From contig JAUWCU010000003.1 of NCBI GenBank assembly GCA_030609135.1, forward strand, positions 55 through 64,054: 64,000 nucleotides of DNA, in the 5' to 3' direction. A program made the translations under genes and the position numbers. How positions within the stretch are numbered: position 1 is the first letter of the stretch; every line of letters starts with the position of its first letter. The notes under the pieces were generated by a model. The model worked only from the letters and a program-made list of their open reading frames with translations. It searched no databases and was not told the origin of the DNA. This stretch comes from Candidatus Stahliibacteriota bacterium. Lineage in GTDB: Bacteria > Hydrothermota > Tepidihabitantia > SM23-42. Shown here in pieces: positions 27,641 through 53,319 of the stretch.

Positions 27641-28813
27641 TTATTTCTCCTTGGTGGCATATAGCGAAATCAATTTATTTACAATCTTATCCCAATTGAA
27701 CCTATCGTCAATGCTTTTCTTAGCCCTCTTCCCCATTTCTTCACGTAGTTTTTTATCAATTGCCAGTCTTCGTATTGCCCTGGCAAGTGCCGGGACGTCG
27801 CCGGGCGGGACAAGAATGCCGTTCACACCATCTTCAACAACATCGGTAATGCCCCCAGCCTTCGAGGCAATAACTGGTTTATAGCAACTCATCGCCTCGA
27901 TCAAGACTACACCAAGACCTTCAATATCGCCTTGTTTATCATATACTGCCGGCAGCACAAAAAAGCCGCATTTTTCATAGTGCCGCAACTTTTCATCAAC
28001 TGAAATCCAGCCGGTAAAATAAACCCGGGAGCGTAGATCAAGACGGTCAACAAGGTTTTCCAGTTCAGGTCGCTCTGCTCCATCGCCGATGATCACTAAT
28101 TTATGGGGTATTTCATTTCTTAGCTCAGCCATGGCCTGTATCAAATACTTGATCCCTTTGCGCTCCACCAGCCGGCCAACAAAAAGAATTTCATTTTCAT
28201 CGCTGATGCTCGATACTCTTTCCGGAACTGCAGCGCTGAACGGTATGACTTCAATTTCACTTTTTATATAACTTCCTAATTCAGTTCTTGTATGGGTAGA
28301 TATCGCAGTAATCGTATCAGACTTATTCAGCAAAATCGAAAGACACTTTGTCAGCCACTTGAATTTTTTCGTGAACCAGCGTATTTCGCGTCCATAAAAA
28401 GTAGAGAATAAGCGGGTTTTACCGGCAATGCGGGCGAATACTCCAAAAATGATATGAGGAAATGGCCAGTGAACGTGAACGATATCATATTTTTCTCTTT
28501 TGACTAATTGGACAATTGCCCAGGTACCAGCTATCATATAGAAAAATATCAGCAGTAGGTTTAAGGGGTTGCGGCTTACCCGGTCGACAACGGTTTCGTC
28601 ATGCGTGAGTTTTTCCAGATTTTTGAAGAAATAACGGAAACGATGAACTTTAACCCGGTCAAGGATCTGATCACGCAAACCTTTGTATGATGAAGTAAAT
28701 ACTTCGACATCGATTTTTTTGTCACGAAGCCGGAGTATTAGCTCGGTAAGCCAGGGGGTTATTACATCCCCTTCATAACGTTTGTAAGCAGTAGTAACAA
28801 ATAATACCTTCAT
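27641..28813 (-). CDS. glycosyltransferase family 4 (GT-B)
   Basis: 390 aa with the GT4 C-terminal motif pattern (GVVLIEAMSCYKPVIASKAGG). Confidence 0.7.
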   Translation of the reverse strand: MKVLFVTTAYKRYEGDVITPWLTELILRLRDKKIDVEVFTSSYKGLRDQILDRVKVHRFRYFFKNLEKLTHDETVVDRVSRNPLNLLLIFFYMIAGTWAIVQLVKREKYDIVHVHWPFPHIIFGVFARIAGKTRLFSTFYGREIRWFTKKFKWLTKCLSILLNKSDTITAISTHTRTELGSYIKSEIEVIPFSAAVPERVSSISDENEILFVGRLVERKGIKYLIQAMAELRNEIPHKLVIIGDGAERPELENLVDRLDLRSRVYFTGWISVDEKLRHYEKCGFFVLPAVYDKQGDIEGLGVVLIEAMSCYKPVIASKAGGITDVVEDGVNGILVPPGDVPALARAIRRLAIDKKLREEMGKRAKKSIDDRFNWDKIVNKLISLYATKEK

Positions 28814-29472
28814 TTCTTAAATTTCCACTTGATCAAGCTCCAGATTGCCTGAATGCCGTCTTTCACACCTATTTTCTTACCTTTTTTGCGTCCGGTGTAG
28901 CTAATCGGTATTTCGACAATTTTCTCTCTTCTTTTCAGGATTTTGCAGGTTATTTCGGGTTCGATCTCAAAATGCGATGAGATTAGGTGTAGATCCCTTA
29001 GGAGATCAGTTTTTATGACCTTATAACATGTCTCCATGTCTGATATATGGCTGCCAAATAAAACATTAGTCAAAAAGGTTAAGAACCGATTCGCAAAATA
29101 ACTTGATTTTAAGAAGCTACCTTTTCCTAAAATTCTTGAACCATACACAACATTTGTTCTTTTTTCTTTAATAGGTTTAATCAGCTGTGGATACTGTTTA
29201 GGTGAATACTCTAAATCAGCATCCTGAATAATAACTATATCTCCAGAGGCAATTTGCAAACCACTTCGGATGGCGGCTCCTTTTCCTCTGTTTTTCTCGT
29301 GAAATATTGTTTTTATTCCTTTTCGCCTTTTCAAAAAATCTCTGGTGCCGTCCACTGAAAAATCATCAACTACGACAATTTCGCGTGCTAAACCTACTTT
29401 TTCGACATCGGTTATTATCGTCTCTATATCGTTCTTCTCATTATATACAGGGATTATCACCGTAACCTCCAT
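28810..29472 (-). CDS. glycosyltransferase family 2 (polyprenol-phosphate sugar transferase-like)
   Basis: 220 aa with a GT-A fold (IPVYNE...VVDDFSVDGT...QDADLEY, a DxD motif). Confidence 0.7.
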   Translation of the reverse strand: MEVTVIIPVYNEKNDIETIITDVEKVGLAREIVVVDDFSVDGTRDFLKRRKGIKTIFHEKNRGKGAAIRSGLQIASGDIVIIQDADLEYSPKQYPQLIKPIKEKRTNVVYGSRILGKGSFLKSSYFANRFLTFLTNVLFGSHISDMETCYKVIKTDLLRDLHLISSHFEIEPEITCKILKRREKIVEIPISYTGRKKGKKIGVKDGIQAIWSLIKWKFKK

Positions 29473-29638
29473 GCCCAGATTATATGGAAAAATCCCTCAA
29501 TGTAAAGTATATTCATAAATCTGACATGTTGTAGTCCTGACAGGCATTTGCAGAGTAAACTCTGCCACTACAGAATGTGCGAAATATCACTGTCCCGCTA
29601 TGCGGGATCTTCGATTTTCCTATAGTGTATGCTAATAT

Positions 29639-29690
29639 GATAAATCCCGCAATTCAATTTATAGAATTACAATACGAAGCGGGATAAATA
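29639..29690. repeat. A-type palindromic element GATAAATCCCGC-[AATTCAATTTATAGAATT]-ACGAAGCGGGATAAAT
   Basis: Copies at 2558-2653 (a tandem pair), 8376-8430, 32245-32294 and 36748-36797 (reverse). Flanked here by a TGTAGTCC...CCACTACA unit (29531-29575) and a cruciform GGAGTGCA...TGCACTCC unit (29703-29750). Confidence 0.7.
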
Positions 29691-29811
29691 GGGCGGAGAG
29701 AGTAGATGGAGTGCAACGGCTTGCCGTTGCATGCAGTAGCAAGCTACTGCACTCCGTAGCAAAATCAAGGGATAAGGGATAAAGATGTGTCCAAGGTTTC
29801 TTAATTAAAAG

Positions 29812-29839
29812 TTGACATTTCGTGCTATATATCTATAAT
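29812..29839 (+). promoter_or_regulatory. sigma70-type promoter TTGACA-16-TATAAT driving tRNA-Glu
   Basis: TTGACA at 29812-29817 and TATAAT at 29834-29839, 7 nt before the tRNA 5' end. The upstream module gggataaagatgtgtccaagg is shared with the 2839 promoter. Confidence 0.55.
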
Positions 29840-29846
29840 ATCCCAC

Positions 29847-29922
29847 GGCGCCATCGTCTAGCTTGGTTTAGGACGTCGCCCTCTCAAGGCGAAGATCACG
29901 GGTTCAAATCCCGTTGGCGCTA
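29847..29922 (+). tRNA. tRNA-Glu (anticodon CTC)
   Basis: Manually folded cloverleaf: acceptor GGCGCCA / TGGCGCT, D-arm GTCT...GGAC, anticodon stem TCGCC / GGCGA with loop CTCTCAA (anticodon CUC), T-arm ACGGG-TTCAAAT-CCCGT. CCA is not encoded, and a T-run follows. Confidence 0.85.
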
Positions 29923-29939
29923 TTTTTTGAAATCGTTTA

Positions 29940-29967
29940 TTGACAAAATGAAGATTTTGCATATAAT
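29940..29967 (+). promoter_or_regulatory. sigma70-type promoter TTGACA-16-TATAAT for the bactofilin operon (36-nt leader with AAGGAGG)
   Basis: TTGACA at 29940-29945, TATAAT at 29962-29967. Confidence 0.5.
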
Positions 29968-30003
29968 TTATGTTAATAAATTACTGATTCAAAGGAGGAT
30001 TGG

Positions 30004-30351
30004 ATGGCGAAAGAAGGTCAGATAGACAGTGTTGTGGGAAAAGGGACTGTTATAAATGGCGATATCAAAGTTGATGGTTCAACTAAAATTGACGGGAAGG
30101 TCAAAGGAAACCTTACAGTAAAAGATAGTCTCTTTGTTGGTAAAAGTTCCGTGATAAAAGGTGATATTTACTGCAAATCAGCAATCATTGGAGGTAAGAT
30201 TCAAGGCAATATCCATATCCAAAACATTGTTGAATTCCAGAGTGGCGCGCAGATGTTTGGTGACATTATTTGCAAAGGCATAATCATCCATGCGGGCGTC
30301 TTTTTTGAAGGTACTTGCCAGATGTCTGAAAAAACAAAGGAAAAGCCGTAG
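30004..30351 (+). CDS. bactofilin (polymer-forming cytoskeletal protein)
   Basis: 115 aa with repetitive beta-helical bactofilin/DUF583 motifs (G.V.G.I.G.L.V.G). Confidence 0.8.
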   Translation: MAKEGQIDSVVGKGTVINGDIKVDGSTKIDGKVKGNLTVKDSLFVGKSSVIKGDIYCKSAIIGGKIQGNIHIQNIVEFQSGAQMFGDIICKGIIIHAGVFFEGTCQMSEKTKEKP

Positions 30352-31173
30352 ATGATAATCAAGTTGTACGGAACAAGAGGTTCCATAGCAGTTGCTAATA
30401 AAGAAACTAAAAAATACGGCGGCAATACGACTTGTCTATATGTTGAATCGAATTCGGGTGATGTAATAGTAGTTGACGCGGGGACTGGTATCCGGCTATT
30501 AGGTGTTCATCTAATACAGGAGAAGAAGGGCAAGATAAATATGCTATTCACCCATTATCACTGGGATCATATTCAGGGCTTTCCCTTTTTTACACCGATA
30601 TTTTTGCCTAGTTCAGTTATAGATATTTACGGTTCATCAAAAATGACAGATCCAAAAAAGGCTTTGTCGTATCAAATGACTCGACCGTACTTTCCCGCAG
30701 TATTGTCTGAATTACCTTCTAAAATCACATTCAAAACCTTAAAGAATAAATTAACTATCGGAGATATAGAAATTCAGACCATTATAAATAACCATCCAGA
30801 TCAAGCCTTAGGCATCAGATTTACTGAAGGCAAGAACTCGTTTGCCTTTTTAACGGACAACGAGCTTTTTGACGAGAATGGCAATACTCCATACAAAAAA
30901 TTCGTTGATTTCATAAAAGGTGTAAATTTCTTCATACATGACGCACAATACAAAGACGATATCTATAAAAAAAGATTGGGCTGGGGTCATTCAACGTACA
31001 GTCAAGTCATGAAGCTTGCTGAGGATGCTGGTGTAAGAAATGTTATGTTTACCCACCACGATCACGGCAGTATTGATAAATGCATAGATGGCATTGTGAA
31101 AGGGTACCGGGGTAAATATCCCAAATACAACATTCAAGCCGCCGCCGACGGTAAGACAATCATTTTAAAATAG
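30352..31173 (+). CDS. MBL-fold metallo-hydrolase
   Basis: HYHWDH (HxHxDH) metal-binding motif. The ATG immediately follows the bactofilin stop codon (TAGATG). Confidence 0.7.
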   Translation: MIIKLYGTRGSIAVANKETKKYGGNTTCLYVESNSGDVIVVDAGTGIRLLGVHLIQEKKGKINMLFTHYHWDHIQGFPFFTPIFLPSSVIDIYGSSKMTDPKKALSYQMTRPYFPAVLSELPSKITFKTLKNKLTIGDIEIQTIINNHPDQALGIRFTEGKNSFAFLTDNELFDENGNTPYKKFVDFIKGVNFFIHDAQYKDDIYKKRLGWGHSTYSQVMKLAEDAGVRNVMFTHHDHGSIDKCIDGIVKGYRGKYPKYNIQAAADGKTIILK

Positions 31174-31182
31174 AAACGTATA

Positions 31183-31950
31183 GTGAAACCCAAGGTTTTA
31201 GTTCTTCGAGCCGCTGGGACAAATTGTGATGTCGAAACAGCTTATGCCTTTAAGATCGCCGGTGCGGAAATTGAAAGCGTATATATAGATGAACTTGAAC
31301 ACCGACAACTAACCGATTACCAAATTATCGCTCTGTCTGGTGGGTTTACTTATGGTGATGATATTGCAGCCGGGAAAATCCTTGCCAATGAGATCAAATA
31401 TAAATTCCGGGATAAGTTTCTTGAGTTTATTGAGCTGGATAATTTGATAATTGGAATCTGTAATGGCTTTCAAGTATTGGTGAAATGCGGGATTTTACCT
31501 GCTTTTGATGAAAGCTTTGAAGCACAATCAGTGAGCCTGATAAGTAATGATTCTGAACGCTTTGAGGATCGTTGGGTCCATCTGAAGGTCTACAGTAATA
31601 GGTCGATTTTCACTAAGGGAATGAAATCAATAATAACCCTTCCAGTAGCCCATGCTGAGGGCAAATTTGTTGTTAAGGATGACGACATTCTAAAACAAAT
31701 CCAAGAACATATTGTTTTCCAGTATGTTGACAAAAAAGGTAATGAAGCCGGTTATCCATTCAACCCAAATGGTTCAATACTTGGTGTCGCTGGCATAACT
31801 GATCAAACCGGTAGAATTCTTGGGTTGATGCCGCATCCAGAACGGCATATTTCGTTTTTGCAACACCCCAATCATACCCGGGAAAAACTCGATGAAACCG
31901 GTGATGGGCTGCGGATTTTTGAAAATGCAGTTAAGTACTTTGAGGTATAA
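31183..31950 (+). CDS. purQ: phosphoribosylformylglycinamidine synthase subunit PurQ-like class-I glutamine amidotransferase (GTG start)
   Basis: Catalytic ICNGFQ (Cys nucleophile) and LGLMPHPER (His/Glu) match PurQ. N-terminal VLVLRAAGTNCD resembles the PurQ VAVVVFPGSNCD block. Confidence 0.6.
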   Translation: MKPKVLVLRAAGTNCDVETAYAFKIAGAEIESVYIDELEHRQLTDYQIIALSGGFTYGDDIAAGKILANEIKYKFRDKFLEFIELDNLIIGICNGFQVLVKCGILPAFDESFEAQSVSLISNDSERFEDRWVHLKVYSNRSIFTKGMKSIITLPVAHAEGKFVVKDDDILKQIQEHIVFQYVDKKGNEAGYPFNPNGSILGVAGITDQTGRILGLMPHPERHISFLQHPNHTREKLDETGDGLRIFENAVKYFEV

Positions 31951-32137
31951 ACAAGTGTTTTTTAACAGAATTATTAATAGCTATCATTATGGTGAGTTCT
32001 CGACAAGCCCCGTTAAATAATAGAGATCGATTTATGATAGAAGCAAAAAAGCGGGTTTAATGAGATGATAGATTTACTCGGAGGTGTAATATCTTGTATT
32101 TAACAGGGCAAGCTATCTCGATTTTACTCGATACAGG

Positions 32138-32405
32138 TCGAACAATAATGATTTTATACTTCGAGCGACCATGAGTTTTACGAATGAGAGTCGAGAATCG
32201 AGCGTTAATAATTGTAGTTGTCCAATTTATTGGACAAAACCTGATAAATCCCGCAATCCTATTCATAACATCATAACACGAAGCGGGATAAATCACCTGT
32301 CTGCGTGCGATGCACAGGCAGGCCTGTCTACCTCAGGCAGAGGCGACTCGAACAATAATGATTTTATACTTCGAGCGACCATGAGCTTTACGAATGAGAG
32401 TCGAT
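32138..32405. mobile_element. composite TGTAGT-type MITE (about 134 bp, C+A+B modules) flanked by 59-bp near-perfect direct repeats
   Basis: The direct repeats are 32138-32196 and 32347-32405 (tcgaacaataatgattttatacttcgagcgaccatgag(t/c)tttacgaatgagagtcga). The core at 32213-32346 starts TGTAGTTGTCCAATTTATTGGAC and ends GGCAGAGGCGAC. The 78-aa track ORF MSFTNESR...MSFTNESR is an artefact of this duplication. Confidence 0.6.
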
Positions 32406-32578
32406 AAGTACCATTCTGTCATTGCCTGGCTTGACCAGGCAATCCAGAATACCTATTCCGGGATCATTCGGCTAAACCGTATGATGACGACTAAAAATTT
32501 TTTGGATTTGATCATTGGAATTTGTTTAAGATTTAGAATTTTGATTTTGGGATTTACCGAACGAAGTGAGGTGTCATT

Positions 32579-32890
32579 ATGGATGGTTACTTAAAAGAAC
32601 ATCCGATTTTAGAATTCAAACGCGGCAAAAAAATTAAGTTCTTTTTCGAAGACCGGGAAATCGAGGGCTATGAAGGACTTCCTATAGCCGCCGCGTTACA
32701 TGCAGCCGGTATTAAGGTGCTCAGTTTCTCAGAAAGGTATAATCGACCCCGAGGGTTCTTTTGTGCAGTTGGCAAATGCTCTTCTTGTTTAATGGAGGTT
32801 GATGGTCATTCCAATGTAATGGTTTGCATGGAATTACTAAAACCAGGTATGAAAGTGCGTCGGCAAAAAGGAAAAAGTCAGAAACAATGA
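32579..32890 (+). CDS. 2Fe-2S cluster-binding small subunit (sarcosine-oxidase-alpha N-terminal / HcnA / OoxA-like)
   Basis: 103 aa with the Cys pattern CAVGKCSSC...C; its stop overlaps the next ATG (ATGA). Confidence 0.6.
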   Translation: MDGYLKEHPILEFKRGKKIKFFFEDREIEGYEGLPIAAALHAAGIKVLSFSERYNRPRGFFCAVGKCSSCLMEVDGHSNVMVCMELLKPGMKVRRQKGKSQKQ

Positions 32891-34026
32891 ATTCAAGCGC
32901 CAAGAACCAAGACCCAAGACCCAAAAATAACATTCAAAACTTCTCATCTTCAGAATTTCCTAACTTCGATATTTGTATTATCGGCGGCGGTCCTGCAGGT
33001 CTTGAAGCCGGGATCATTGCACGTAGGCTCGGAGCCAAGGTTATGATAATCGATGATAACCCAGTGCTCGGTGGACAATTAATCAAGCAGACGCACAAGT
33101 TTTTCGGCTCTAAAGCGCATTATTGCGGTGTAAGAGGCGTTGATATAGCAGGTATTCTCAGCAAAGAGATTAAGGATTTAGGTTTTGACGTTCTCCACAA
33201 TGCAACTGTAGTTGGGTATTATGATGATGATATCATCGGTGTGCTGCAACATGATAAATTGTTGTCAGTAAAGGCAAGGGCGTACATTTTTGCAACCGGG
33301 GCTAGTGAAAACATGCTCGCCTTTGACAACGCAGATTTACCTGGTGTTTATGGCGCTGGTGCTGTACAGACCATGATGAATGTCTATGGTGTTGTGCCCG
33401 GGAAAAGAGCGGTGGTAATCGGGTCTGGTAATATCGGCTTGATTGTTCCTTATCAGTTGCTGCAGGCTGGTGTTGAGGTGGCGGCAATTATAGAAATCAT
33501 GGATAAAGTCGGTGGTTATTATGTTCACGCGGCAAAGCTAAAAAGAGCCGGTGTACCGATTATCCTCAAACACACAATTATCCAAGCCCAGGGTAGAGAT
33601 TGTGTTGAAGCTGCACTTATCAGCAAGGTCGACGGAAAATATAAGTGCCTGCCCGGTACAGAAAAAACAATTGAGTGCGACATGATTCTGATTGCGATCG
33701 GTCTTTCGCCACTCTGCGAATTGCTCTACCAGGCAGGATGTCGTATAGATTATATCCCTGAGCTTGGCGGTCATGTACCCCTTCACAATGAAGACATGAT
33801 GACTACCCAGAAAAACATCTTTGTGTGCGGTGATCTGGCGTGTATTGAGGAAGCGTCTACGGCTATGCTCGAAGGCAAGATTGCCGGAGCCAAGGCGCAT
33901 GAAGTTATATACGGCGAGACCAAGCAGGGTAAAGAGATTGCCCAACAGGCAAAAAGAGAACTCGCGGTTATTCGGTCTTCTCCATTTGAACAAAGGATTA
34001 CTTACGGTCTGAATAAGTTGAAGTAG
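32887..34026 (+). CDS. FAD/NAD(P)-binding pyridine-nucleotide-disulfide-family oxidoreductase (HcnB / opine-oxidase-A-like)
   Basis: Two Rossmann dinucleotide motifs (IIGGGPAGLEAG and VIGSGNIGL). Start set at ATG 32887, which overlaps the upstream stop; the track ORF from 32824 is in the same frame. Confidence 0.65.
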   Translation: MNSSAKNQDPRPKNNIQNFSSSEFPNFDICIIGGGPAGLEAGIIARRLGAKVMIIDDNPVLGGQLIKQTHKFFGSKAHYCGVRGVDIAGILSKEIKDLGFDVLHNATVVGYYDDDIIGVLQHDKLLSVKARAYIFATGASENMLAFDNADLPGVYGAGAVQTMMNVYGVVPGKRAVVIGSGNIGLIVPYQLLQAGVEVAAIIEIMDKVGGYYVHAAKLKRAGVPIILKHTIIQAQGRDCVEAALISKVDGKYKCLPGTEKTIECDMILIAIGLSPLCELLYQAGCRIDYIPELGGHVPLHNEDMMTTQKNIFVCGDLACIEEASTAMLEGKIAGAKAHEVIYGETKQGKEIAQQAKRELAVIRSSPFEQRITYGLNKLK

Positions 34027-34220
34027 CTGCAAATACGTCTTCAACAATTCAACAGGACTATTGTCATTACGAGTGTAGTCGAGAACCCTCAACATGATTA
34101 TTGTTCCTCTCACCTTGTTCGAGACAGGCGAGCGAAGTTGAGAACTTCCGCAATATGGGTGATGGCCCTAGATAAAAATGTCATTGCGAAGGCGTAGCCT
34201 GAAGCAATCTCACCTCCTTT

Positions 34221-34324
34221 TGTCAATCAAGCGCGTGAGGGCATAGTATTTGTAGTGGTCGAGTTTACTCGACAAACATCCCTGCACGCTACGGTATTTG
34301 TGCAGAGCAAGCTCTGCCACTACA
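34221..34324. repeat. D-type REP element: TGTAGTGG-[TCGAGTTTACTCGA]-CAAACATCCC-[TGCACGCTACGGTATTTGTGCA]-GAGCAAGCTCTGCCACTACA with a conserved 30-bp upstream arm
   Basis: Near-identical copies at 36388-36478 and 36961-37062. A partial inverted composite lies at 39048-39180. The perfect 8-bp termini are TGTAGTGG / CCACTACA. Confidence 0.75.
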
Positions 34325-34473
34325 TATGTTGGGGTAGGTCTTTACACGAGCGGGACTCTGTTTCATGTCATTGCGAATCCGCCGCGTCATATAGCGGACA
34401 AAGTCCCGCAATGCAAGGATCCTCGATTTTCATTTATTAGAAATATATAGTACGGAAAATCGGGATAGTCTCA

Positions 34474-34501
34474 TTGACAGCCCAATTTTTCTCTATATAA
34501 T
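34474..34501 (+). promoter_or_regulatory. sigma70-type promoter TTGACA-16-TATAAT, leaderless (ATG 8 nt after the -10)
   Basis: TTGACA at 34474-34479, TATAAT at 34496-34501, ATG at 34510. Confidence 0.5.
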
Positions 34502-34509
34502 ACCATGTT

Positions 34510-35526
34510 ATGAATGCAATAGAAGTCATAAAATCAGTTGCTGGTCTTGGCGGTCTCAGTTTGATTTTTGGTATTGTTCTGGCTGTTGCATTTAAGAAAC
34601 TCGCGGTCAAAGTTAGTGAACAAGAGCAGAAACTGAGAGATGCTTTGCCAGGTACAAATTGCGGTGCCTGTGGTTTCCCGGGTTGTGATGCCTATGCCCA
34701 TGCCTTAGCTGAAAATACTGGTGAGGTAGCGTCAAACCTCTGCACCGTCGGTGGTGCTGAAACAATTAGGAAAATCGGCGAAATCCTGGGCATTGAGGTT
34801 GAGGCAGCAGAACCAATGATGTGTGTATTACGATGCCGGGGCGGTAGGGAAAACGCAGTTGAAAAGTTTGAGTATATAGGGCCAGGTGATTGCCGAAGCA
34901 ATTACATCCTCTTGGGCGGTAATAAAGCATGTGAGTGGGGGTGTTTGGGCGGTGGTCACTGTGAGACTGTTTGTCCATTTGACGCCATTACAATGGGGCC
35001 GAATCGTCTACCTATTATTGATCCACACAAATGCACGGCATGTGGTATTTGCGTAAAAGAGTGTCCGCGTCAGGTACTTGAGTTACTACCCCGCGTTCAA
35101 TTGATATACTTGGCCTGTAAAACTCTGGATAAAGGTAAAGTGGTCAAAAATGTCTGCAAGGTTGGTTGTATTGGTTGTACCCTCTGTGTTAAGTCCTGTC
35201 CTTATGAAGGAGCAATACAAATGGATGGTAATCTTCCCAAGATGGACTATACCAAGTGTATATCATGTGGTATTTGTTATAATAAATGCCCTACCAAATC
35301 ATTTGTTGACCGTGCTCCAGCGCGACCTTATGCGATTATTTCTTCAAAGTGCGATGGCTGTGGAGAATGCGTAAAAGTATGTTTGTTCAAGGCAATTGAG
35401 GGAAAACCAGGAAAACGCCACACCGTGATAAAAGATAAGTGCATAGGCTGTGGCAGGTGTTTTGAAGTTTGTCCGATAAAAGTTATTACCATGGCTGGCG
35501 CCTTGGGATATGTAGAAACAGCATAG
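34510..35526 (+). CDS. membrane-anchored RnfB-like polyferredoxin (RnfB N-terminal Fe-S domain plus at least four 4Fe-4S ferredoxin motifs)
   Basis: N-terminal TM helix followed by PGTNCGACGFPGCDAYA (the RnfB signature). Multiple CxxCxxCxxxCP motifs follow (CTACGICVKECP, CIGCTLCVKSCP, CISCGICYNKCP, CDGCGECVKVC, CIGCGRCFEVCP). Confidence 0.65.
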   Translation: MNAIEVIKSVAGLGGLSLIFGIVLAVAFKKLAVKVSEQEQKLRDALPGTNCGACGFPGCDAYAHALAENTGEVASNLCTVGGAETIRKIGEILGIEVEAAEPMMCVLRCRGGRENAVEKFEYIGPGDCRSNYILLGGNKACEWGCLGGGHCETVCPFDAITMGPNRLPIIDPHKCTACGICVKECPRQVLELLPRVQLIYLACKTLDKGKVVKNVCKVGCIGCTLCVKSCPYEGAIQMDGNLPKMDYTKCISCGICYNKCPTKSFVDRAPARPYAIISSKCDGCGECVKVCLFKAIEGKPGKRHTVIKDKCIGCGRCFEVCPIKVITMAGALGYVETA

Positions 35527-35557
35527 TGTTAGAACATCAGGCTATCAGAGGATCAGG

Positions 35558-36373
35558 ATGAAGTTATATTATGCCAACTCCACATTGGACAATGCTCAAG
35601 TTATCATCCTTGGTCTTGGTTATGATAGAACTTCATCATTTATCCCTGGTTCGCGATTTGGACCCGAGTTTATAAGATTATGTTCTAATAATATTGAGGA
35701 ATATTCACCATATCAAGATAAGAGTCTTTGTAATGTGAACATATGTGATTGCGGGGAGGTAGAGTTTGACACAAAAGATTGGGTCTTAAAAGCGCGTACC
35801 GCAGTCAAAGAATACATAGATGAACAGAAATATCTCATTGCACTCGGCGGAGAGCATACGATTACCTTACCGATTACTCAAGTCCTAAAAGAGAAATATG
35901 AAAATTTTTCACTGGTTCATTTTGATGCTCACTGTGATCTACGCGATGAGTATCTTGAGCAGAAAATCTGCCACGCTACAGTGATGCGCCGGGTGAGCGA
36001 TATTATTGGGCTTGATAATCTATACCAGTTTGGTATTCGTTCAGGAACCCAGGAGGAATTTAGTTTTGGCAAGAACCTGTACAAATTCGATCTTTTTAAA
36101 CCTTTATCTTCAGTAATAAACAATATCAAAGAACCTATTTATCTATCAATAGATGTGGATGTTTTGGACCCGGGAGTATTACCGGCAGTTTCCACACCTG
36201 AACCAGGCGGGGTTTCATATCAGGAGTTTATTAAAGCACTGCTATTATTTAAAGACAAGAAAATACTTGGAGCTGATATTGTTGAATACAACCCTTTCGC
36301 TGCCTCACCATATGCGTCAGGCTCCACTGTCGCTGAGATACTGCGGGAGCTCATTCTGGTCGGAACTCCCTGA
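35558..36373 (+). CDS. speB: agmatinase (arginase/ureohydrolase family)
   Basis: GGEHTIT, DAHCDL and SIDVDVLDP Mn-binding signatures of the arginase family, and a length typical of SpeB. Confidence 0.75.
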   Translation: MKLYYANSTLDNAQVIILGLGYDRTSSFIPGSRFGPEFIRLCSNNIEEYSPYQDKSLCNVNICDCGEVEFDTKDWVLKARTAVKEYIDEQKYLIALGGEHTITLPITQVLKEKYENFSLVHFDAHCDLRDEYLEQKICHATVMRRVSDIIGLDNLYQFGIRSGTQEEFSFGKNLYKFDLFKPLSSVINNIKEPIYLSIDVDVLDPGVLPAVSTPEPGGVSYQEFIKALLLFKDKKILGADIVEYNPFAASPYASGSTVAEILRELILVGTP

Positions 36374-36387
36374 TCCAGGTAAGTTTA

Positions 36388-37064
36388 TAGTATTCGTAGT
36401 GGTCGAGTTCACTCGACAAACATCCTTGCACGCCACGGTATTTGTGCAGAGCAAGCTCTGCCACTACATGTGTTCTTGATTCGTTCCAGTATCCAACCCA
36501 AACCCTTTTTCCATACTCACAGTTATAGTCGCTCGATTCATCGAGCCAATCTAATGGAGCGTCTGATAAATCAGACAACTACAAAGATTAATCAAATTGT
36601 TACATCATATCATTGTAGTTGCTCGATTCATCGAGCCAATTTACGCGGAAAGCCCCTCAGACTAGCATAATTACTGTTTCTCTCACCTTGTTCGAGACAG
36701 GCGAGCGAAGTCGAGAACCACCCTTTGCATTTTTCGCCGCCCAATTCATCCCGCTTCGTATTGTAATTCTATAAATAGAATTGCGGGATTTATCGGGCCA
36801 ATTTACGCGGAAGTATGTAGTCGCTCGATTCATCGAGCCAATCTAATGGAGCGTCTGATAAATCAGACAACTACAGCGCAGCGTATCTTCAGTGAAACGT
36901 GTCTCCAGCGTAGCGTGTCTTCAACAGAGTGTGTTCTCCATTTCTCCCATACTCCTTTTGTCGATCAAACGCGTGAGGGCATAGTATTTGTAGTGGTCGA
37001 GTTTACTCGACAAACATCCCTGCACGCTACGGTATTTGTGCAGAGCAAGCTCTGCCACTACATG
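36388..37064. repeat. BIME-like array of at least seven REP-type units in a 790-bp intergenic region
   Basis: Order: D (36388-36478), TATAGTCG-type C (36515-36600), C (36610-36650), the ctctcaccttgttcgagacaggcgagcgaagtcgagaacc unit (36676-36720, also at 34085-34140), A reversed (36748-36797), C (36815-36885), D (36961-37062). Four track ORFs here are spurious. Confidence 0.75.
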
Positions 37065-37120
37065 TGTTCGGAATTCCTAATTACCAAATTACTCGGTTAC
37101 ACAACTATAAAAGGCTCGTA

Positions 37121-37148
37121 TTGACACCGCCCATACCGTGCTTATAAT
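37121..37148 (+). promoter_or_regulatory. sigma70-type promoter TTGACA-16-TATAAT with a 17-nt leader containing AAGGAGG
   Basis: TTGACA at 37121-37126, TATAAT at 37143-37148, ATG at 37166. Confidence 0.5.
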
Positions 37149-37165
37149 TATCGTAAGGAGGAACA

Positions 37166-39016
37166 ATGACACTAATAATATTGTTTTTAGCAGGTCAATC
37201 ATTTTTTAACATTGAGAACAAGCAAGTATTCTATCCTGAACCAGTTAGAGCTGAATCAACGCACTCGTATGATGTACTGCACTATTTCATAGATCTGAAC
37301 CTTCCAATGACTTCCCGCTATCTTGAAGGCGCGGTTACGATTTCAGCCCGGAGTAATCAGGATAATTTGACGATTCTTGACCTCCACCTTTTAGGCTTGA
37401 GTGTTGATTCTTTAAAAGTCGATGGAGTTACTGCATCTTACTCCCACAATTACGAGACTTTATATGTGAATCTGCCTCAAGTCTATAATCAGGGTGATTC
37501 CTTTGATATAATGGTGGGATATAGTGGCACGGCTTCGGGCAGCATGGGTTATCTCAGGTATACCAGCACCCACCCCATTTCATATACCCTGGGTTGTCCA
37601 TTCTGCACAAGAAGATGGCTACCCTGTTATGACCGATTATGGGACAAGGCTGATTATGGTGTCGAGTTTTTTATAACTGTACCGGATTCCTATTATGTCT
37701 GCGCTACCGGAGAATTAATTGACGTAGATACTACGGCAGGTTATGCAACATTCAATTGGAAACATAATTATCCTATCGCTCCTTATCTTATTCACTTTGC
37801 TTCAAGCATCTTTACCACATATTCAGATTGGTATTATCCAGCGGCAGGAGATAGCATTGAGATTAAAAATCATTTCTGGCCTGAGGATATGATTTATGCC
37901 CCGACCGCGTTTCAATATACCACAGACATGATGTCTTATTATGATTCGCTTTATGGCGCTTATCCTTTTGAACGCTATGGTATGGTAATACTTCAGCCAT
38001 TCTATTATGCGGGCATGGAACATCAAACCATGAGCTCGATATATCGTACAGGTTTTGTTGGTAATGATTATTACCTGATGGCGCATGAGATGTCGCATAT
38101 GTGGTGGGGTGATATGGTAACGTGTTTTGGTTGGCAGAATGTCTGGCTGAACGAGGGTTTTGCAACATATTCTGATGCCCTGTACCGTGAACACCATGTT
38201 AATCATCAGCTTTTCATTAATACCATGATCTCCCGCCGCAATGCATACTTCAGCTCAGAAGCGTCGTTTCCACATCCGATCTATGACCCGCCGGCAAATC
38301 ATATTTTTAATTGGGGTCATTCTTATTGCAAGGGTTCATGGCTCTGTCATATGATCAGATATTTGTGCGGTGATGATAATACCTGGTTAAACCTGCTTGC
38401 CACATACCGTGATTCATTCGCATATCAAGATGCCTCAAGCGATGATTTGAACCGGATAATGGACCAGGTACTCGGAGGAAATTATGATTGGTTCTTTAAT
38501 GAATGGGTGTATGATCTTTACTATCCAATCTATGATATCGTGTGGGTAAAAATCTATGAATCGCCGAACTGGCGTTTGATTTTGGACATCACTCAAACTC
38601 AACCCATGGGCCCTTCGGTTTTTCATATGCCATTGCCAATCGGCGTAGATTTCTCAAGCGGTGATACAATATTAACGCTCGACATAAATCAATCCCCACA
38701 ACACTTTGAGTATGTATTGCTACAAGAGCCAATGGACATTATCGTTGATCCAGAAACCTGGGTAATTCAAAAAAATACTGTGACCCAGGGTATTGCAGAA
38801 TATGTTGCTCCCGGTATATTTATTGAGAACATCAACACGATCGGTCGGGCAATCGAGCTCAAGCTTACTCAACCCGGTTTAATTCGAATTTTTGATATTA
38901 CAGGCAGAAAGGTCTATGAAACACATGCTCAGGAGGTTAAATATCAACCTTCAAGCGCGGGTATCTACCACGTAATAATCGGTGACAAGAAACAGCGAGT
39001 AGTCGTTGTAAAATAA
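37166..39016 (+). CDS. M1-family zinc aminopeptidase with a C-terminal T9SS (Por) sorting domain
   Basis: HEMSHMWWG...NEGFATY is the gluzincin HExxH-x18-E motif. The C-terminus LIRIFDITGRKVYE...AGIYHVIIGDKKQRVVVVK matches the T9SS CTD pattern. Confidence 0.75.
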   Translation: MTLIILFLAGQSFFNIENKQVFYPEPVRAESTHSYDVLHYFIDLNLPMTSRYLEGAVTISARSNQDNLTILDLHLLGLSVDSLKVDGVTASYSHNYETLYVNLPQVYNQGDSFDIMVGYSGTASGSMGYLRYTSTHPISYTLGCPFCTRRWLPCYDRLWDKADYGVEFFITVPDSYYVCATGELIDVDTTAGYATFNWKHNYPIAPYLIHFASSIFTTYSDWYYPAAGDSIEIKNHFWPEDMIYAPTAFQYTTDMMSYYDSLYGAYPFERYGMVILQPFYYAGMEHQTMSSIYRTGFVGNDYYLMAHEMSHMWWGDMVTCFGWQNVWLNEGFATYSDALYREHHVNHQLFINTMISRRNAYFSSEASFPHPIYDPPANHIFNWGHSYCKGSWLCHMIRYLCGDDNTWLNLLATYRDSFAYQDASSDDLNRIMDQVLGGNYDWFFNEWVYDLYYPIYDIVWVKIYESPNWRLILDITQTQPMGPSVFHMPLPIGVDFSSGDTILTLDINQSPQHFEYVLLQEPMDIIVDPETWVIQKNTVTQGIAEYVAPGIFIENINTIGRAIELKLTQPGLIRIFDITGRKVYETHAQEVKYQPSSAGIYHVIIGDKKQRVVVVK

Positions 39017-39047
39017 GTCTGCTGTCATTGCGTAAGTATTTAATAAT

Positions 39048-39180
39048 TGTAGTGGTCGAGTTTACTCGACAAATATCCTTCACGCTGCTTTTGCCCAACT
39101 GTAGTTGCCTCTGCCTGAGGCAGACAGGCCTGCCTGTGCGTCGCACGCAGACAGGTGATTTATCAGGCTGCATCAATCCG
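39048..39180. repeat. inverted composite REP element (partial D unit, B hairpin and the A-junction GTGATTTATCAGG)
   Basis: Reverse complement of the 32225-32345 architecture. The GCCTCTGCCTGAGGCAGACAGG hairpin equals B-type units at 2656-2683 and 32296-32346. Confidence 0.6.
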
Positions 39181-39382
39181 CCATCTTATGTCATTGTGAA
39201 GGCGAAGTCCGAAGCAATCTCCAAAAAAGAGATCGCTTCGTTCACACTCGCGATGACAGGAAAAAAATGTTACTGCGAGCGGAATCGAGAACCTTCAGCA
39301 GTAGTATAATATTGTTCTCTCCGTTGCTCCGATACTCCCTTTCACCGTTTCTCCCATTCTCCTGTTCTTGCCCGTTATCACG

Positions 39383-39410
39383 TTGACATATAGCCCTTTC
39401 TCGCTATAAT
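39383..39410 (+). promoter_or_regulatory. sigma70-type promoter TTGACA-16-TATAAT, 5 nt upstream of a GTG start
   Basis: TTGACA at 39383-39388, TATAAT at 39405-39410. Confidence 0.45.
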
Positions 39411-39415
39411 ATATA

Positions 39416-40618
39416 GTGTCTCAGCAACTAAATATCTTGGTCACCGGCGCCGCCGGCTTTATCGGCTGGAAAGTCTGCGAACTCCTCCTCACCAAACCAG
39501 AGCTAATTCCGAGTGACATAATGACCAATGACTCAATGACTGTTTCTGTTATTGGCATCGACAACCTCAACGACTACTACGACATCCGCCTCAAACAATG
39601 GCGTCTTGAGCAATTAAAGAAGTTAAATAGTCATTGCCAGGAACCTTCCTCTTCCGTCATTGCGAGGAATCCCGAGTTTGTCGAGGGAGACGAAGCAATC
39701 TCACCCAATCGATTCATGTTTCACAAACTCGACATCGAAGACTACGCATCTCTTAAGAAATTGTTCCAAAAATACTCTGTTCATTCAAAAAGTACCGCAC
39801 AAAGTGCTCATAACCGCCCCGACACTTTGAATAAAAGTGTGGGGGCCAAAACCGCATCTTTGATGCCAGAACCGCCGTTTACGGCAGTGATCAATCTCGC
39901 TGCTCGTGCTGGTGTTCGCTACAGTTTGGAAAACCCGTTTGTATATTATACGACAAATGTCATCGGTACTTTAAACCTTCTCGAACTGTGTCGTGAATTT
40001 GGTGTGAAAAAATTCATCCTTGCATCTACTTCATCACTATATGCCGGACAGAAAATGCCTTTTAAAGAGGAGTTACCGGTGAATGAACCCATATCGCCTT
40101 ACGCAGCATCAAAAAAGAGTGCTGAAGTTACCTGTTATACATATCACAATTTGTATGATATCGATGTGACGATTTTAAGGTATTTCACTGTGTATGGACC
40201 AGCATCCAGACCTGATATGAGTCCCTTGCGTTTCATATCCTGGGTATATCAGGAAAAACCTGTTATCATATATGGAGATGGTACCCAGTCACGAGATTTT
40301 ACCTATGTCGATGACATCGCCCGCGGCACAATAATGGCATTAAAACCTTTGGGTTTTGATATAATAAACCTTGGCTGTGATCAACCCCATGAATTGCTCG
40401 AATTTCTTCACATGATTGAGGAGAAGCTGGGCAAGAAAGCAAAGATTGTCAATGAACCCATGCATCCTGCAGACATGAAAGCAACCTGGGCAGATATCAC
40501 TAAAGCTAAGAAAATACTCGGCTGGCAGCCTTCAGTAAGATTGGAACAGGGGCTCGATACTGCGGTTGTTTGGTTCACAAAAAACCGTACCTGGCTTGCT
40601 GATATCAAGCTCTCTTGA
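39416..40618 (+). CDS. NAD-dependent nucleotide-sugar epimerase (UDP-glucuronate 4-epimerase / CapI-like SDR) with two lineage-specific insertions, one derived from a repeat element
   Basis: N-terminal ILVTGAAGFIG and the catalytic YAASK motif. Compared with the CapI-like core there are extra segments SSVIARNPEFVEGDEAIS and VHSKSTAQSAHNRPDTLNKSVGAKTASLMPEPP. The start is uncertain (GTG at 39416, or the TTG three codons downstream). Confidence 0.7.
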   Translation: MSQQLNILVTGAAGFIGWKVCELLLTKPELIPSDIMTNDSMTVSVIGIDNLNDYYDIRLKQWRLEQLKKLNSHCQEPSSSVIARNPEFVEGDEAISPNRFMFHKLDIEDYASLKKLFQKYSVHSKSTAQSAHNRPDTLNKSVGAKTASLMPEPPFTAVINLAARAGVRYSLENPFVYYTTNVIGTLNLLELCREFGVKKFILASTSSLYAGQKMPFKEELPVNEPISPYAASKKSAEVTCYTYHNLYDIDVTILRYFTVYGPASRPDMSPLRFISWVYQEKPVIIYGDGTQSRDFTYVDDIARGTIMALKPLGFDIINLGCDQPHELLEFLHMIEEKLGKKAKIVNEPMHPADMKATWADITKAKKILGWQPSVRLEQGLDTAVVWFTKNRTWLADIKLS

Positions 40619-41678: not shown

Positions 41679-42578
41679 ATGCTGGCAACTAATCTTACCG
41701 TTCATATAGATTCTTCCTACATCCCTTGGCGAGTTCAAGCTGGAGAAGAACCACAGTATTTGTGGCGCTGGGCAATGGCATACGGTGAGTCATACTGGCG
41801 GAATTTTTATGCCTGCACCACCAAGGTGCAATGCCTGCGGAATTATGCAGACACAACTTATGACGACACCTATTTTGATGGTGTCTTTGTTGACAATTTG
41901 CTCCACTTCGTTGATGGTTTGAGTTATGGTTACAACATTTATCCTGCACAATATCGTCCTTATCCGGATACCAATAACTTTGCACAATGGGATGCAAACT
42001 TACGTGCGGCAGTAGATACTTTTGTGCAAACAGTAAGCGCTGAATACCATAACCCTAACACACCTTCTGGTCATCCTTGCGAGGTTTTAGCAATAGGCAA
42101 TACAAACCGGGCACATTTGGTGGATGAATATGCTACTTTATGGAAAAATTTTCTGCAATATCTGGATGGCGCAGTGGAAGAATCTGATTTTGCGCGTGCT
42201 GATATAGAATTTGGTCGCTGGCAGAGAATGATTCATGAAATGGCGATTGCCGAATCATTGGGCAAGATATGCCTCATTCATGTGCCCTGTTCCACAGAAT
42301 TTTATAGTCCTAATGACCCTTTGAGTGTCTACTATTATGACTCAACTCAGATGATTTATGGTTTTGCAAGTTACTTGATGGCTTACGATTCTGTGAGTCA
42401 TTTCGCTTTAAATAAGAATCTTTCTCCCAATTATGCCCATATCTACTGGGCACCGATTTTTTCAATTTGTTCAATTTCTGAATTGGTGAATAGGCGGTTT
42501 CGGAATAGATATTTCGGCTTAAATGTTTCTGGAGATTTTCCCATAAAACAATTATACATATTTTTTGCGAGAACTTAA
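41679..42578 (+). pseudogene. N-terminally truncated paralog of the secreted GH114/TM1410-like hydrolase at 45127 (no signal peptide; starts mid-domain)
   Basis: Aligns to residues about 155-450 of the 45127 protein. It contains a 112-bp tract (41763-41874) that is 100% identical to 45647-45758 while the flanks are diverged. It ends at a TAA that is followed immediately by G9. Confidence 0.45.
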
Positions 42579-42658: not shown

Positions 42659-42687
42659 TTGACAAAGACAAAACCAATGATTATAAT
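42659..42687 (+). promoter_or_regulatory. sigma70-type promoter TTGACA-17-TATAAT with a 70-nt leader and a GGAGG SD
   Basis: TTGACA at 42659-42664, TATAAT at 42682-42687, start ATG at 42759. Confidence 0.5.
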
Positions 42688-42758: not shown

Positions 42759-43733
42759 ATGAAAAGAGTGGTCATTGGGATATGTGCAATAGTGATAGGG
42801 TTTATGCCCTTGTCCATCTATGGTTCTGAAATTGCAACTGTAACTTTGGAAACCTGGATGAATGCTTCCCAGGGTTTTGAACCAAACCTTGGTCAGATTG
42901 GCGATTTTGAAGGGAATGTGGTTAATAATATCTTGTGCGCTTTCAAGGGTAATGGACTTGGTATATTCATTAATGAAAAAGGGGTAAGTTATGTTATTTA
43001 TCAAGCGGAAAAAATCTTAAGAGATGAGTCCCAGAGAATTGATTTAAGAGAACCTGAAAAAAATCTTATCCACTATGCAAGGATTGATGTGGAGCTTGTG
43101 AATTCCAATTTTGAAAAGTCAAAAATCGTTTATGAAGATGAGCTACCCGGATATGCGCATTATTATTTGCCACAATGTCCTGATGGTATTCTTTATGTGA
43201 AAAGTTTCAGAAAGGTGCGGATTAAAGAGATATATCCGGGCGTTGACTGGATATGGAAATATGAAGATGGACGGTTGCATCATGAATTTGAGGTCAAACC
43301 TGCGTCTGATGTTTCAAAGATAAAGATGAAGGTTAAATGGGCTGATGTTGAGATAAGCGAAAATGGTAGAAAACTTATATATTCTACGCCACTTGGTAAG
43401 ATAAAAGATGGAAATATACTTGGTTATGAAAATCCGAAATCCAAAATCCGAAATCCGAGACCGATTGATATTTCTTATATAAAAAATGAAGATGGGATAA
43501 TTTCCTTTGAAATAAAGAATTATTCCGGTAAAAATCCTCTAATTATTGACCCACCCCTTGCACTATTATGGGGGACATATTACGGAGGCAATGATCCTGA
43601 TCGTGGCTATTCAATTACAACCGATAATTCAGGTAATATTTTTGTAACTGGGACCACTTATTCAACAGAATTTTCCCACACAAGACCCCGGTGGTGGTGC
43701 TTATTATCAAGGTACAAAAGCAGGATATTTTGA
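42759..43733 (+). CDS. SBBP-repeat beta-propeller surface protein, N-terminal part (signal peptide, unique 270-aa domain and the first repeat); reading frame breaks at the T4 run at 43677-43680
   Basis: Start at the internal Met [22 protein letters not shown], preceded by GGAGG. After TTYSTEF the frame yields SHTRPRWWC..., whereas the +1 frame continues the repeat consensus [14 protein letters not shown]. Deleting one T restores a single 770-aa ORF. Confidence 0.6.
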
Positions 43734-44800
43734 TGTATTTGTTTTAAAGTTTACAAATACAGGGGTTCGGCTTTGGGCGACATATTACGGAGGAAATGAC
43801 AGAGATGGGGGCGCTTCAATTATAACTGACAATTCAGGTAATGTTTTTGTAGGTGGAACCACCTATTCAACAGATTTTGCCACACAGGACCCTGGCGGTG
43901 GTGCTTATTATCAAGGAACATTTGCAGGTGTTGGTGATGCATTTATTTTGAAGTTTACAAATGTTGGTATTCGCCTCTGGGCAACATATTACGGCGGAAA
44001 TGATAGTGATATGGTGTGTTCGATTACCACTGATAATTCAGGTAATGTTTTTATAACTGGGTGGACTCTTTCAACAGATTTTCCCATACAGGACCCTGGC
44101 GGTGGTGCCTATTATCAGGGAGCAAATGCAGGTTATAGAGATGCATTTATTTTGAAGTTTACAAATACGGGTGTTCGTCAATGGGCAACGTATTACGGAG
44201 GAAATGCTGGTGATTGGTGCAATTCAATTACAGCGGATAGTTCAGGTAATGTTTTTATAGCCGGATACACCTATTCAACAAATTTCCCCACATATGACCC
44301 CGGGGGAGGTGCTTATTATCAGGAAACACTTGGAGGTGTTCATGATGCATTTATTTTGAAGTTTACAAATACCGGTGTTCGGCAAAGGGCGACATATTAC
44401 GGCGGAAATAATGAGGATATGTGTAATTCAGTTACAACTGATGCTTCAGGTAATATTTTTGTGACTGGATACACTTTTTCACCAGATTTTCCCACATATG
44501 ACCCCGGGGGAGGTGCTTATTATCAGGGAGCACTTGCAGGCGGATATGATGCATTTGTCTTGAAGTTTACAAATAGCGGTATTCGCCAATGGGCAACGTA
44601 TTACGGAGGAAATGATGTGGATTGTGGCTTTTCAATTAAAACCGATAATTCAGGTAATGTTTTTGTAACTGGACTAACTGTTTCAACAAATTTCCCAACA
44701 CAGGACCCTGGCGGTGGTGCTTATTATCAGGGGACACATGCAGGTGTTGGTGATGTATTTCTTTTGAAGTTTGAAACTTCACTGGGAATTGTAGAGGAAA
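43560..44800 (+). repeat. intragenic tandem DNA repeats (144-bp period, about 8 copies, high nucleotide identity) encoding the SBBP blades
   Basis: Recurrent strings include gcaacatattacggcggaaatga, ggtgcttattatcagg and gcatttattttgaagtttacaaata. Confidence 0.7.
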
Positions 44801-53082: not shown

Positions 53083-53319
53083 AATAATATAGTAGCATAA
53101 TATTATTTCCAGCCTATTATACTGATATCAGTGTGTATGTCAACGACGTAAAACTCTCAGTAATTTGGAATATAATATTTTTGATACGGAAATAAACCAA
53201 GTAGACCTACCAAATACGTTTTGATGTTTCTGACGTTGAAGCATATGTATTTGTGCTAATTGAGATGTGTAAGTTGCTCTGAAGCGATAGCTCTTGACAC
53301 ACAAAGGGTTGGGAGTATA

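Follow-up and report, generated by a model that had tools for sequence, protein, structure and literature searches.

A DAO-less flavoprotein gene pair and a detached rnfB as neighbours in a WOR-3 bacterium

A contig of a Candidatus Stahliibacteriota bacterium (JAUWCU010000003.1, assembly GCA_030609135.1, positions 55 to 64,054 of the forward strand) was analysed over 64,000 nucleotides, here called the window, with a focus on a gene pair for a small [2Fe-2S] protein and a flavoprotein that is followed by rnfB and the agmatinase gene speB. The best homologues of the window proteins carry the labels candidate division WOR-3 or Candidatus Stahlbacteria. The two blocks are probably functionally independent units that lie next to each other by chance in one WOR-3 sub-lineage: a stand-alone NADH-FAD-[2Fe-2S] pair and a relocated rnfB-speB block. 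The locus is laid out as follows.

29847-29922, + strand: tRNA gene (Rfam scan of 29400-39500)
29940-29967, + strand: sigma-70 consensus promoter, 12/12 match, 5' of the bactofilin gene
30004-30351, + strand: bactofilin gene
30352-31173, + strand: gene for an MBL-fold protein
31183-31950, + strand: purQ, glutaminase subunit of formylglycinamidine ribonucleotide (FGAM) synthase (Pfam GATase_5, E=3.9e-82; TIGR01737, 215.5 bits against a cut-off of 177.8)
31951-32578: purQ-to-Fer2_4 spacer of 628 bp with REP-like elements throughout
32579-32890, + strand: HcnA-like [2Fe-2S] small subunit, 103 amino acids (Pfam Fer2_4, PF13510, E=7.7e-26)
32887-34026, + strand: HcnB/OoxA/PDH1-alpha-like flavoprotein with FAD and NAD(P)H sites, 379 amino acids (Pyr_redox_2, PF07992, E=4.1e-33)
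34027-34509: repeat spacer of 483 bp between the flavoprotein gene and rnfB
34474-34501, + strand: rnfB promoter, TTGACA-N16-TATAAT, with the -10 box ending 8 nt before the ATG
34510-35526, + strand: rnfB, 338 amino acids (NCBIfam NF005503, 265.1 bits against a cut-off of 252)
35558-36373, + strand: speB agmatinase gene (TIGR01230, 240.9 bits against a cut-off of 174.3; PF00491, E=5.5e-65)
36374-37165: repeat spacer
37121-37148, + strand: consensus promoter of the M1 peptidase gene, which marks the end of the rnfB-speB unit
37166-39016, + strand: M1 peptidase gene

The flavoprotein pair and its clade

The stop codon of the Fer2_4 gene and the start codon of the flavoprotein gene overlap as ATGA (32887-32890), the coupling that an earlier note on this DNA had described. 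The 103-residue protein contains the motif C62-x4-C67-x2-C70-x12-C83, the four cysteines of which are invariant in 84 homologues, and in the PDB its match is the N-terminal domain of PH1363 (1Y56_A), which is the Pyrococcus horikoshii proline dehydrogenase (PDH1) alpha subunit. Among solved structures, the flavoprotein matched SoxA (2GAG_A) best (E=1.4e-20, residues 26-364 to 128-470), and the N-terminal half of PH1363 was also a top match in the PDB. Against the SoxA model TIGR01372, the flavoprotein scored 157.8 bits over model positions 169-495 only, short of the cut-off of 1164 bits. The motifs GGGPAG (33-38) and GSGNIG (179-184) as well as E203 and G315-D316 are invariant in 25 flavoproteins. 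GGGPAG is the predicted FAD motif and GSGNIG the predicted second Rossmann motif, and E203, at the end of the second Rossmann strand, would by the usual rule favour NADH over NADPH. No BFD/SO_alpha_A3 domain was detected by Pfam in the 379-residue protein. By homology, the two proteins are the split form of an HcnA+HcnB / OoxA / PDH1-alpha module.

Single-chain Fer2_4+flavoprotein fusions occur naturally (P0243, P0245) and, together with the ATGA overlap, imply that the two proteins work as one unit. An exhaustive search of 1.84 billion representatives returned 486 flavoprotein relatives at E≤1e-30. The architectures found among flavoprotein relatives also include flavoprotein+Fer4+BFD, a complete Fer2_4+flavoprotein+Fer4+BFD+DAO fusion (P0273) and, in the distant relative P0312, a fusion to MvhD and polyferredoxin domains. 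Homologues of the pair number more than 7,500, the best 120 of which are all at least 72% identical, and identity across WOR-3 is 70-97%. Ratios of non-synonymous to synonymous substitution (dN/dS) against four close orthologues were 0.06-0.15 for the 103-residue protein and 0.07-0.27 for the flavoprotein, within the range seen for purQ, rnfB and the agmatinase; the pair is therefore under purifying selection rather than decaying.

In comparison with HcnABC of Pseudomonas and OoxAB of Agrobacterium, the 103-residue protein corresponds to HcnA and the 379-residue protein to the Pyr_redox_2 core of HcnB/OoxA, and both the gene order (Fe-S protein first, then flavoprotein) and the tight coupling are the same. 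However, the window pair has no HcnC/OoxB (DAO) gene at its locus and no BFD/SO_alpha_A3 domain, is linked to purQ instead, and belongs to an anaerobe-type WOR-3 bacterium. Taken together, the two window proteins align with the first ~260 residues of PH1363, a single chain with a DAO-type beta partner and an N-terminal domain that lacks the four cysteines, whereas here a separate Fe-S protein carries the complete cluster motif and no beta subunit is encoded alongside. Only about one third of SoxA (2GAG_A, 1VRQ_A; TIGR01372) is spanned by the window flavoprotein, which lacks the folate-binding C-terminal half; the beta, gamma and delta subunits are absent as well.

The Pfam scan covered about 50 gene-like open reading frames (ORFs) of at least 120 amino acids, nearly all of those in the window; the ORFs at 27641-28813 and 28810-29472, whose orthologues in locus L004 are glycosyltransferases, and a few ORFs nested in larger genes were left out. 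Within this scope, no DAO-type subunit was found in the 64 kb, the sole match to the DAO superfamily being a Thi4 thiazole synthase (6899-7669), and a search of the window by tblastn revealed no BFD-like ORF. Flavoprotein relatives of 43-63% identity were used to seed a metagenome scan that returned 80 loci; these were pooled with the WOR-3 loci and scored for DAO and BFD where at least 2.5 kb of downstream sequence was available. By their downstream genes, the combined loci split into two clean classes. Loci of the next-closest clade, in which the flavoprotein is 43-54% identical to that of the window, have the order Fer2_4-flavoprotein-Fer4/BFD-(BFD)-DAO, with DAO downstream in 44 of 50 loci and upstream in at least four of the remaining six (L125, L140, L149, L169). 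In the window's own clade, the order is purQ-Fer2_4-flavoprotein, and BFD and DAO are absent downstream in all 16 scored loci (58-100% identity), the divergent L092 and L105 among them, with no DAO or BFD gene within 7-10 kb. The lack of a DAO-type partner that had been noted for the window thus extends to the whole scored clade. The clade reaches down to about 50% identity (L094, L100, L162), where the downstream sequence is too short for scoring. With the DAO domain of P0273 as query, 42 matches were obtained, none of them WOR-3-labelled, in a word-limited search of low sensitivity. Because DAO is adjacent to the pair only in distant relatives and in no WOR-3 relative, its absence is judged to be an ancient, fixed state and not a recent loss; simple loss from this genome, for which the earlier note had proposed to look in related genomes, finds no counterpart there. 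Either the Fer4/BFD and DAO components were lost for good in this clade or they were never part of it.

A stand-alone 85-residue Fer2_BFD/SO_alpha_A3 gene was seen in L002 (4531-4788, - strand; CP070834.1), 3 kb upstream of the pair and adjoining lipoate-protein ligase and lipoyl synthase genes. No counterpart of it was found in the window or in any other locus.

The sole neighbour of the pair that is conserved clade-wide is purQ, which lies 5' of it in every clade locus with sufficient upstream sequence. The flanks are otherwise unrelated: L092 has secY, L105 divergent lptFG and L162 an M54 peptidase. The purQ-Fer2_4-flavoprotein trio occupies 31183-34026 in the window, 5654-8080 in L092, 5570-8086 in L105, 107-2232 in L162 and 5735-8083 in L094. 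Between purQ and the Fer2_4 gene there are 0-100 nt in divergent relatives, compared with 628 bp in the window, where repeats have inflated the spacer. No purL or purS was found near the trio. PDB matches of the window PurQ are the PurL C-terminal domain and PurQ, and its Cys-His-Glu triad motifs are kept. Where linkage to purQ was gained, BFD and DAO are missing. Homologues of the pair carry pipeline labels such as "sarcosine oxidase alpha" (JGI), "HcnB" and "ferredoxin-NADP reductase". As an uncharacterised variant of a known family, conserved, lacking DAO and linked to purQ, the pair defines a phylum-wide subfamily of HcnAB/OoxA/PDH1-alpha flavoproteins whose members are mislabelled by annotation pipelines.

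The detached rnfB and its transcription unit

RnfB of the window aligns from residue 4 to 328 with residues 5-327 of Acetobacterium woodii RnfB (PDB 9ERI_B; E=1.6e-71, 43% identity), and 32 of its 33 cysteines align with cysteines of that protein, which amounts to eight clusters' worth. A. woodii RnfB has a first transmembrane helix (TM1), an Fe-S domain, B8, that is mobile (residues 30-100), and another seven [4Fe-4S] clusters, B1-B7 (PMC11889175). In the window protein, hydrophobic residues 10-28 align to TM1 and are predicted to form a membrane helix, the Fe-S (B8) domain PF04060 lies at residues 46-78 (E=4.7e-11), and five CxxCxxCxxxC motifs are accompanied by atypical ones. The two proteins are similar in length (338 and 333 residues) and have the transmembrane helix, B8 and seven further [4Fe-4S] motifs in common; the window gene, however, lies outside an rnfCDGEAB operon, in a probable bicistron with the agmatinase gene under its own leaderless-type promoter. 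Given the end-to-end match, the window protein is by its sequence a standard full-length, long-form RnfB. The identification as RnfB in the earlier note holds, whereas the fusion to ferredoxin motifs that had seemed unusual is the normal architecture.

The agmatinase reported to follow the RnfB-like gene is also there, as its score above the TIGR01230 cut-off indicates. It contains the motifs GGEH, DAHCD and SIDVDVLDP, its best PDB match is the putative agmatinase 3LHL, and it is predicted to be the usual putrescine-forming enzyme. The gene starts 31 nt after rnfB and is preceded by a Shine-Dalgarno-like GAGGA with no promoter between, and it is probably co-transcribed with rnfB. Apart from the relocation of rnfB, both RnfB and the agmatinase are ordinary.

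Perfect TTGACA-N16-18-TATAAT promoters occur 11 times in the window, compared with 0.12 expected, and nearly all of them lie just 5' of genes (2839-2866, 21327-21354, 29812-29839, 29940-29967, 34474-34501, 37121-37148, 39383-39410, 42659-42687, 53294-53321 and 62828-62855, and 53116-53143 on the - strand). All 23 related detached-rnfB loci examined have the rnfB promoter at the same distance from the gene, while the flanking bases vary. Since this consensus promoter is conserved in all of these loci, rnfB is considered to be transcribed separately from the pair, and its mRNA is probably leaderless or near-leaderless. No intrinsic terminator was predicted on the + strand in the spacer at 34027-34509. 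Between the bactofilin gene and the flavoprotein stop codon, no consensus promoter was found in five loci (the window, L003, L004, L006 and L007), and upstream of the pair these loci have consensus promoters only before the tRNA and before the bactofilin gene. The arrangement suggests that bactofilin, MBL, purQ, Fer2_4 and flavoprotein genes form one transcription unit, probably from the promoter at 29940-29967.

At three promoters, those of the genes that start at 21361, 34510 and 39416, no more than 5-8 nt separate the end of the -10 box from the start codon, which implies leaderless mRNAs. Another promoter lies 7 nt before the tRNA at 29847, and the one at 53294 has no gene within ~500 nt downstream. 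Conserved consensus promoters and leaderless starts would offer a practical way of delimiting transcription units in these uncultured bacteria.

Eighty RnfB loci, obtained from a scan that took one genome for each GTDB species, were queried with RnfC, D, G, E and A from L025 (WOR-3) and L061 (Peptostreptococcus). No rnfC, D, G, E or A was found in the window by tblastn with WOR-3 and clostridial Rnf proteins. WOR-3 bacteria with an RnfB of 55-60% identity to that of the window have a canonical rnfCDGEAB operon (L025-L033, L062 and L077; also L087 and L088), and in loci with an RnfB of 61-94% identity (L002-L024, L034-L044 and L135), rnfB is the sole rnf gene within 10 kb. In most of the detached-rnfB WOR-3 loci, rnfB is followed by the agmatinase gene and usually then by the M1 peptidase gene. 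In each of the five complete WOR-3 chromosomes a single RnfB locus was found, of the detached type, and the suggestion that this copy might be a pseudo-paralogue of a complete rnf operon elsewhere therefore fails.

The complementary rnfCDGEA operons, with no rnfB at their end, are seen in L091 and L172. RnfC of both loci groups with P0229, a Candidatus Stahlbacteria-labelled RnfC whose gene is followed by rnfD. In a published survey, Rnf genes were present in 135 of 181 WOR-3 metagenome-assembled genomes (MAGs), with all subunits present (PMC12542636). Taxon labels, the RnfC clustering and this survey link the B-less rnfCDGEA operons to the detached rnfB. The economical reading of these sequence data is that rnfB was relocated, that rnfCDGEA lies elsewhere in the genome and that the Rnf complex would be intact. 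RnfB would then act as the ferredoxin-docking subunit of the Na+/H+-translocating ferredoxin:NAD+ oxidoreductase (Rnf). As a normal Rnf subunit, it would allow Rnf energy conservation to be scored in WOR-3 MAGs that carry rnfB and rnfCDGEA on separate contigs, where presence/absence tables expecting one rnf operon would misjudge the split genes.

Unlike the agmatinase gene, which is a stable neighbour of rnfB, the flavoprotein pair lies directly 5' of rnfB only in a Stahlbacteria-like sub-lineage (~15 loci). It is not beside rnfB in ~24 WOR-3 loci (L013-L020, L023, L034-L044 and others). In L021, the bactofilin-MBL-purQ-pair block is inverted and lies 7 kb upstream of rnfB, and in L003, L092 and L105 the pair is present with no rnfB nearby. 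Because the adjacency is limited to one sub-lineage, the pair and rnfB are regarded as independent, juxtaposed blocks.

Variant RnfB-like genes were also observed. In L035-L044 (for example L039, 9695-11546), the agmatinase gene is preceded by a 237-residue RnfB core without the transmembrane helix or B8, which looks like an anchorless polyferredoxin derived from RnfB. Its gene starts 4-8 nt after that of a 98-residue protein, judged GYD-like by eye, and both lie downstream of an apparent sigma-54-type response regulator gene. The rnf cluster is broken up in several different ways in the WOR-3 phylum: in some WOR-3-like contigs, rnfC-rnfD is followed by Aldedh and class-III aminotransferase genes, or by an anchorless polyferredoxin gene (L173), in place of rnfGEA (L089, 9001-14107; L090, 2146-7252; L173, 10001-12932).

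Function of the pair and alternative readings

By analogy, the pair is most likely a stand-alone NADH:acceptor oxidoreductase. NADH would reduce the FAD on the 379-residue subunit, and electrons would leave singly through the [2Fe-2S] cluster of the 103-residue subunit to some acceptor. The alpha subunit of archaeal PDH1 alone has NADH dehydrogenase activity and serves as the model for this proposed function. As a small two-protein NADH/[2Fe-2S] enzyme, the pair could be expressed and assayed.

Several points weigh against the reading of two independent units, one of them a relocated rnfB that serves an intact Rnf complex. For the genome of the window, rnfCDGEA is only predicted, and no RnfC from the five complete chromosomes with detached rnfB was among the best 120 RnfC matches. 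The anchorless 237-residue proteins encoded before the agmatinase gene indicate that RnfB homologues linked to speB need not be classical Rnf subunits. On DAO-less forms, the literature on PDH1 alpha and HcnAB gave no usable information. For the flavoprotein, the AlphaFold2 model is of moderate quality (pLDDT 66), with its most conserved loops disordered; in Foldseek it matched SoxA and TrxR-type ferredoxin-NADP reductases at a TM score of ~0.35, which is consistent with the general two-dinucleotide-binding fold class and adds no mechanistic detail. Finally, the very deep linkage to purQ, which lies 0-100 nt from the pair in divergent lineages, could reflect a functional tie, and a DAO subunit could act in trans.

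The latter alternative, which we consider to have an outside chance, holds that the pair is the electron-transfer half of an amine or amino-acid dehydrogenase whose DAO subunit, perhaps with a BFD-type protein, is encoded elsewhere and assembles in trans. The closest relatives outside the clade are all found in Fer2_4-flavoprotein-Fer4/BFD-DAO operons, the full fusion P0273 exists, a separate 85-residue Fer2_BFD/SO_alpha_A3 gene lies 3 kb from the pair in CP070834.1, and the rnf genes show that split operons are tolerated in WOR-3. Nevertheless, DAO and BFD are absent within 7-10 kb in the 16 clade loci and from the 64-kb window, the L002 BFD gene recurs in no other locus, and the low-sensitivity DAO query gave no WOR-3-labelled protein. 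Moreover, the Fer4/BFD connector, which lies between flavoprotein and DAO in most of the related operons examined, is missing too.

A functional three-gene system of purQ, Fer2_4 and flavoprotein, in which a PurQ-like glutaminase would have a redox-linked role or the pair would serve purine or glutamine metabolism, is doubtful. It would account for the retention of purQ in every clade locus despite such dissimilar flanks as secY, lptFG and an M54 peptidase, for the gaps of 0-100 nt in divergent lineages, for the lack of purL and purS nearby and for the coincidence of purQ linkage with BFD and DAO absence. However, PurQ scores above the equivalog cut-off and keeps its Cys-His-Glu triad motifs, FGAM synthesis has no redox step, and the adjacency may be historical, with 628 bp of repeats parting purQ from the pair in the window. 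An equally doubtful extension is that the trio replaces the BFD/DAO half of the ancestral complex as a three-component system, with a PurQ-type glutaminase coupled to an NADH-driven [2Fe-2S] flavoprotein, or, in a variant of it, that the pair is a dedicated NADH-dependent reductase for some WOR-3 target.

It is highly improbable that the pair feeds NAD(P)H electrons into RnfB, as a substitute for RnfC or an extra input branch, in connection with agmatine or polyamine turnover. This is in essence the membrane-associated module of the earlier note. Adjacency in ~15 Stahlbacteria-like loci, the detachment of rnfB from rnfC in the clade and the fusion of the distant relative P0312 to polyferredoxin and MvhD domains would fit it. 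However, rnfB has a separate, strongly conserved promoter and encodes a standard Rnf subunit; the adjacency is patchy, being absent from most detached-rnfB loci and from L003, L092 and L105, and the blocks are inverted in L021; B-less rnfCDGEA operons supply the normal partners; and the agmatinase, as a hydrolytic enzyme, needs no electrons. The other proposal of that note, a degenerating remnant of an Hcn/Oox-type operon, would explain the missing BFD and DAO genes of related operons and has next to no probability: it was rejected because the reading frames are intact, the cofactor motifs invariant, the dN/dS values (0.06-0.27) those of purifying selection and identity across the phylum 70-97%.

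Spacer repeats and other features of the window

The spacer of about 480 bp that had been described as repeat-filled measures 483 bp (34027-34509) and contains GTAGT hairpins. In each element, a GTAGT head precedes a hairpin with a 6-bp stem and a TTYA-type loop of 4 nt. There are 22 such hairpins in the window, all intergenic, compared with 2.5 expected in shuffles (for example at 2531, 8224, 8335, 16190, 32214, 34252/34323, 36396/36467, 36615, 36817, 36990/37061, 39049 and 62760), and their stems differ in sequence yet stay complementary. Inverted doublets lie within a 120-nt unit at 34214-34333, 36358-36477 and 36952-37071; the doublet of the spacer at 34027-34509 comprises hairpins at 34252 (+ strand) and 34323 (- strand). 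GTAGT-hairpin elements are also present in the related loci L006 and L008. This signature points to REP/REPIN-like elements, with which the window repeats share short GTAG(T)-headed hairpins, extragenic location and frequent inverted doublets; they differ in that the scanned ORFs of the window include no RAYT (Y1 transposase) gene. To our knowledge, no REP/REPIN family has been described for WOR-3. The spacers are long because these elements fill them, and the repeats have no evident regulatory meaning for the relation between the pair and rnfB. In the Rfam scan of 29400-39500 (E≤1), no riboswitch or regulatory RNA was found; the matches were the tRNA and one chance match.

Elsewhere in the window, five to six tandem 204-nt repeats at 43569-44784, 76-81% identical, encode SBBP beta-propeller repeats; the protein has a weak C-terminal match to the type IX secretion system domain Por_Secre_tail (E=5e-4, under the Pfam cut-off). 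A 147-nt segment at 41762-41908 recurs at 45645-45791 with 93% identity, within two different ORFs (41679-42578 and 45127-47931), neither of which has a Pfam match. A toxin-antitoxin pair of a HepT-like RNase and an MNT nucleotidyltransferase is located at 61619-62453 on the - strand. Comparable NTP_transf_2/HEPN pairs lie 3' of the M1 peptidase gene in L004 and L005 and 3' of the flavoprotein pair in L105.

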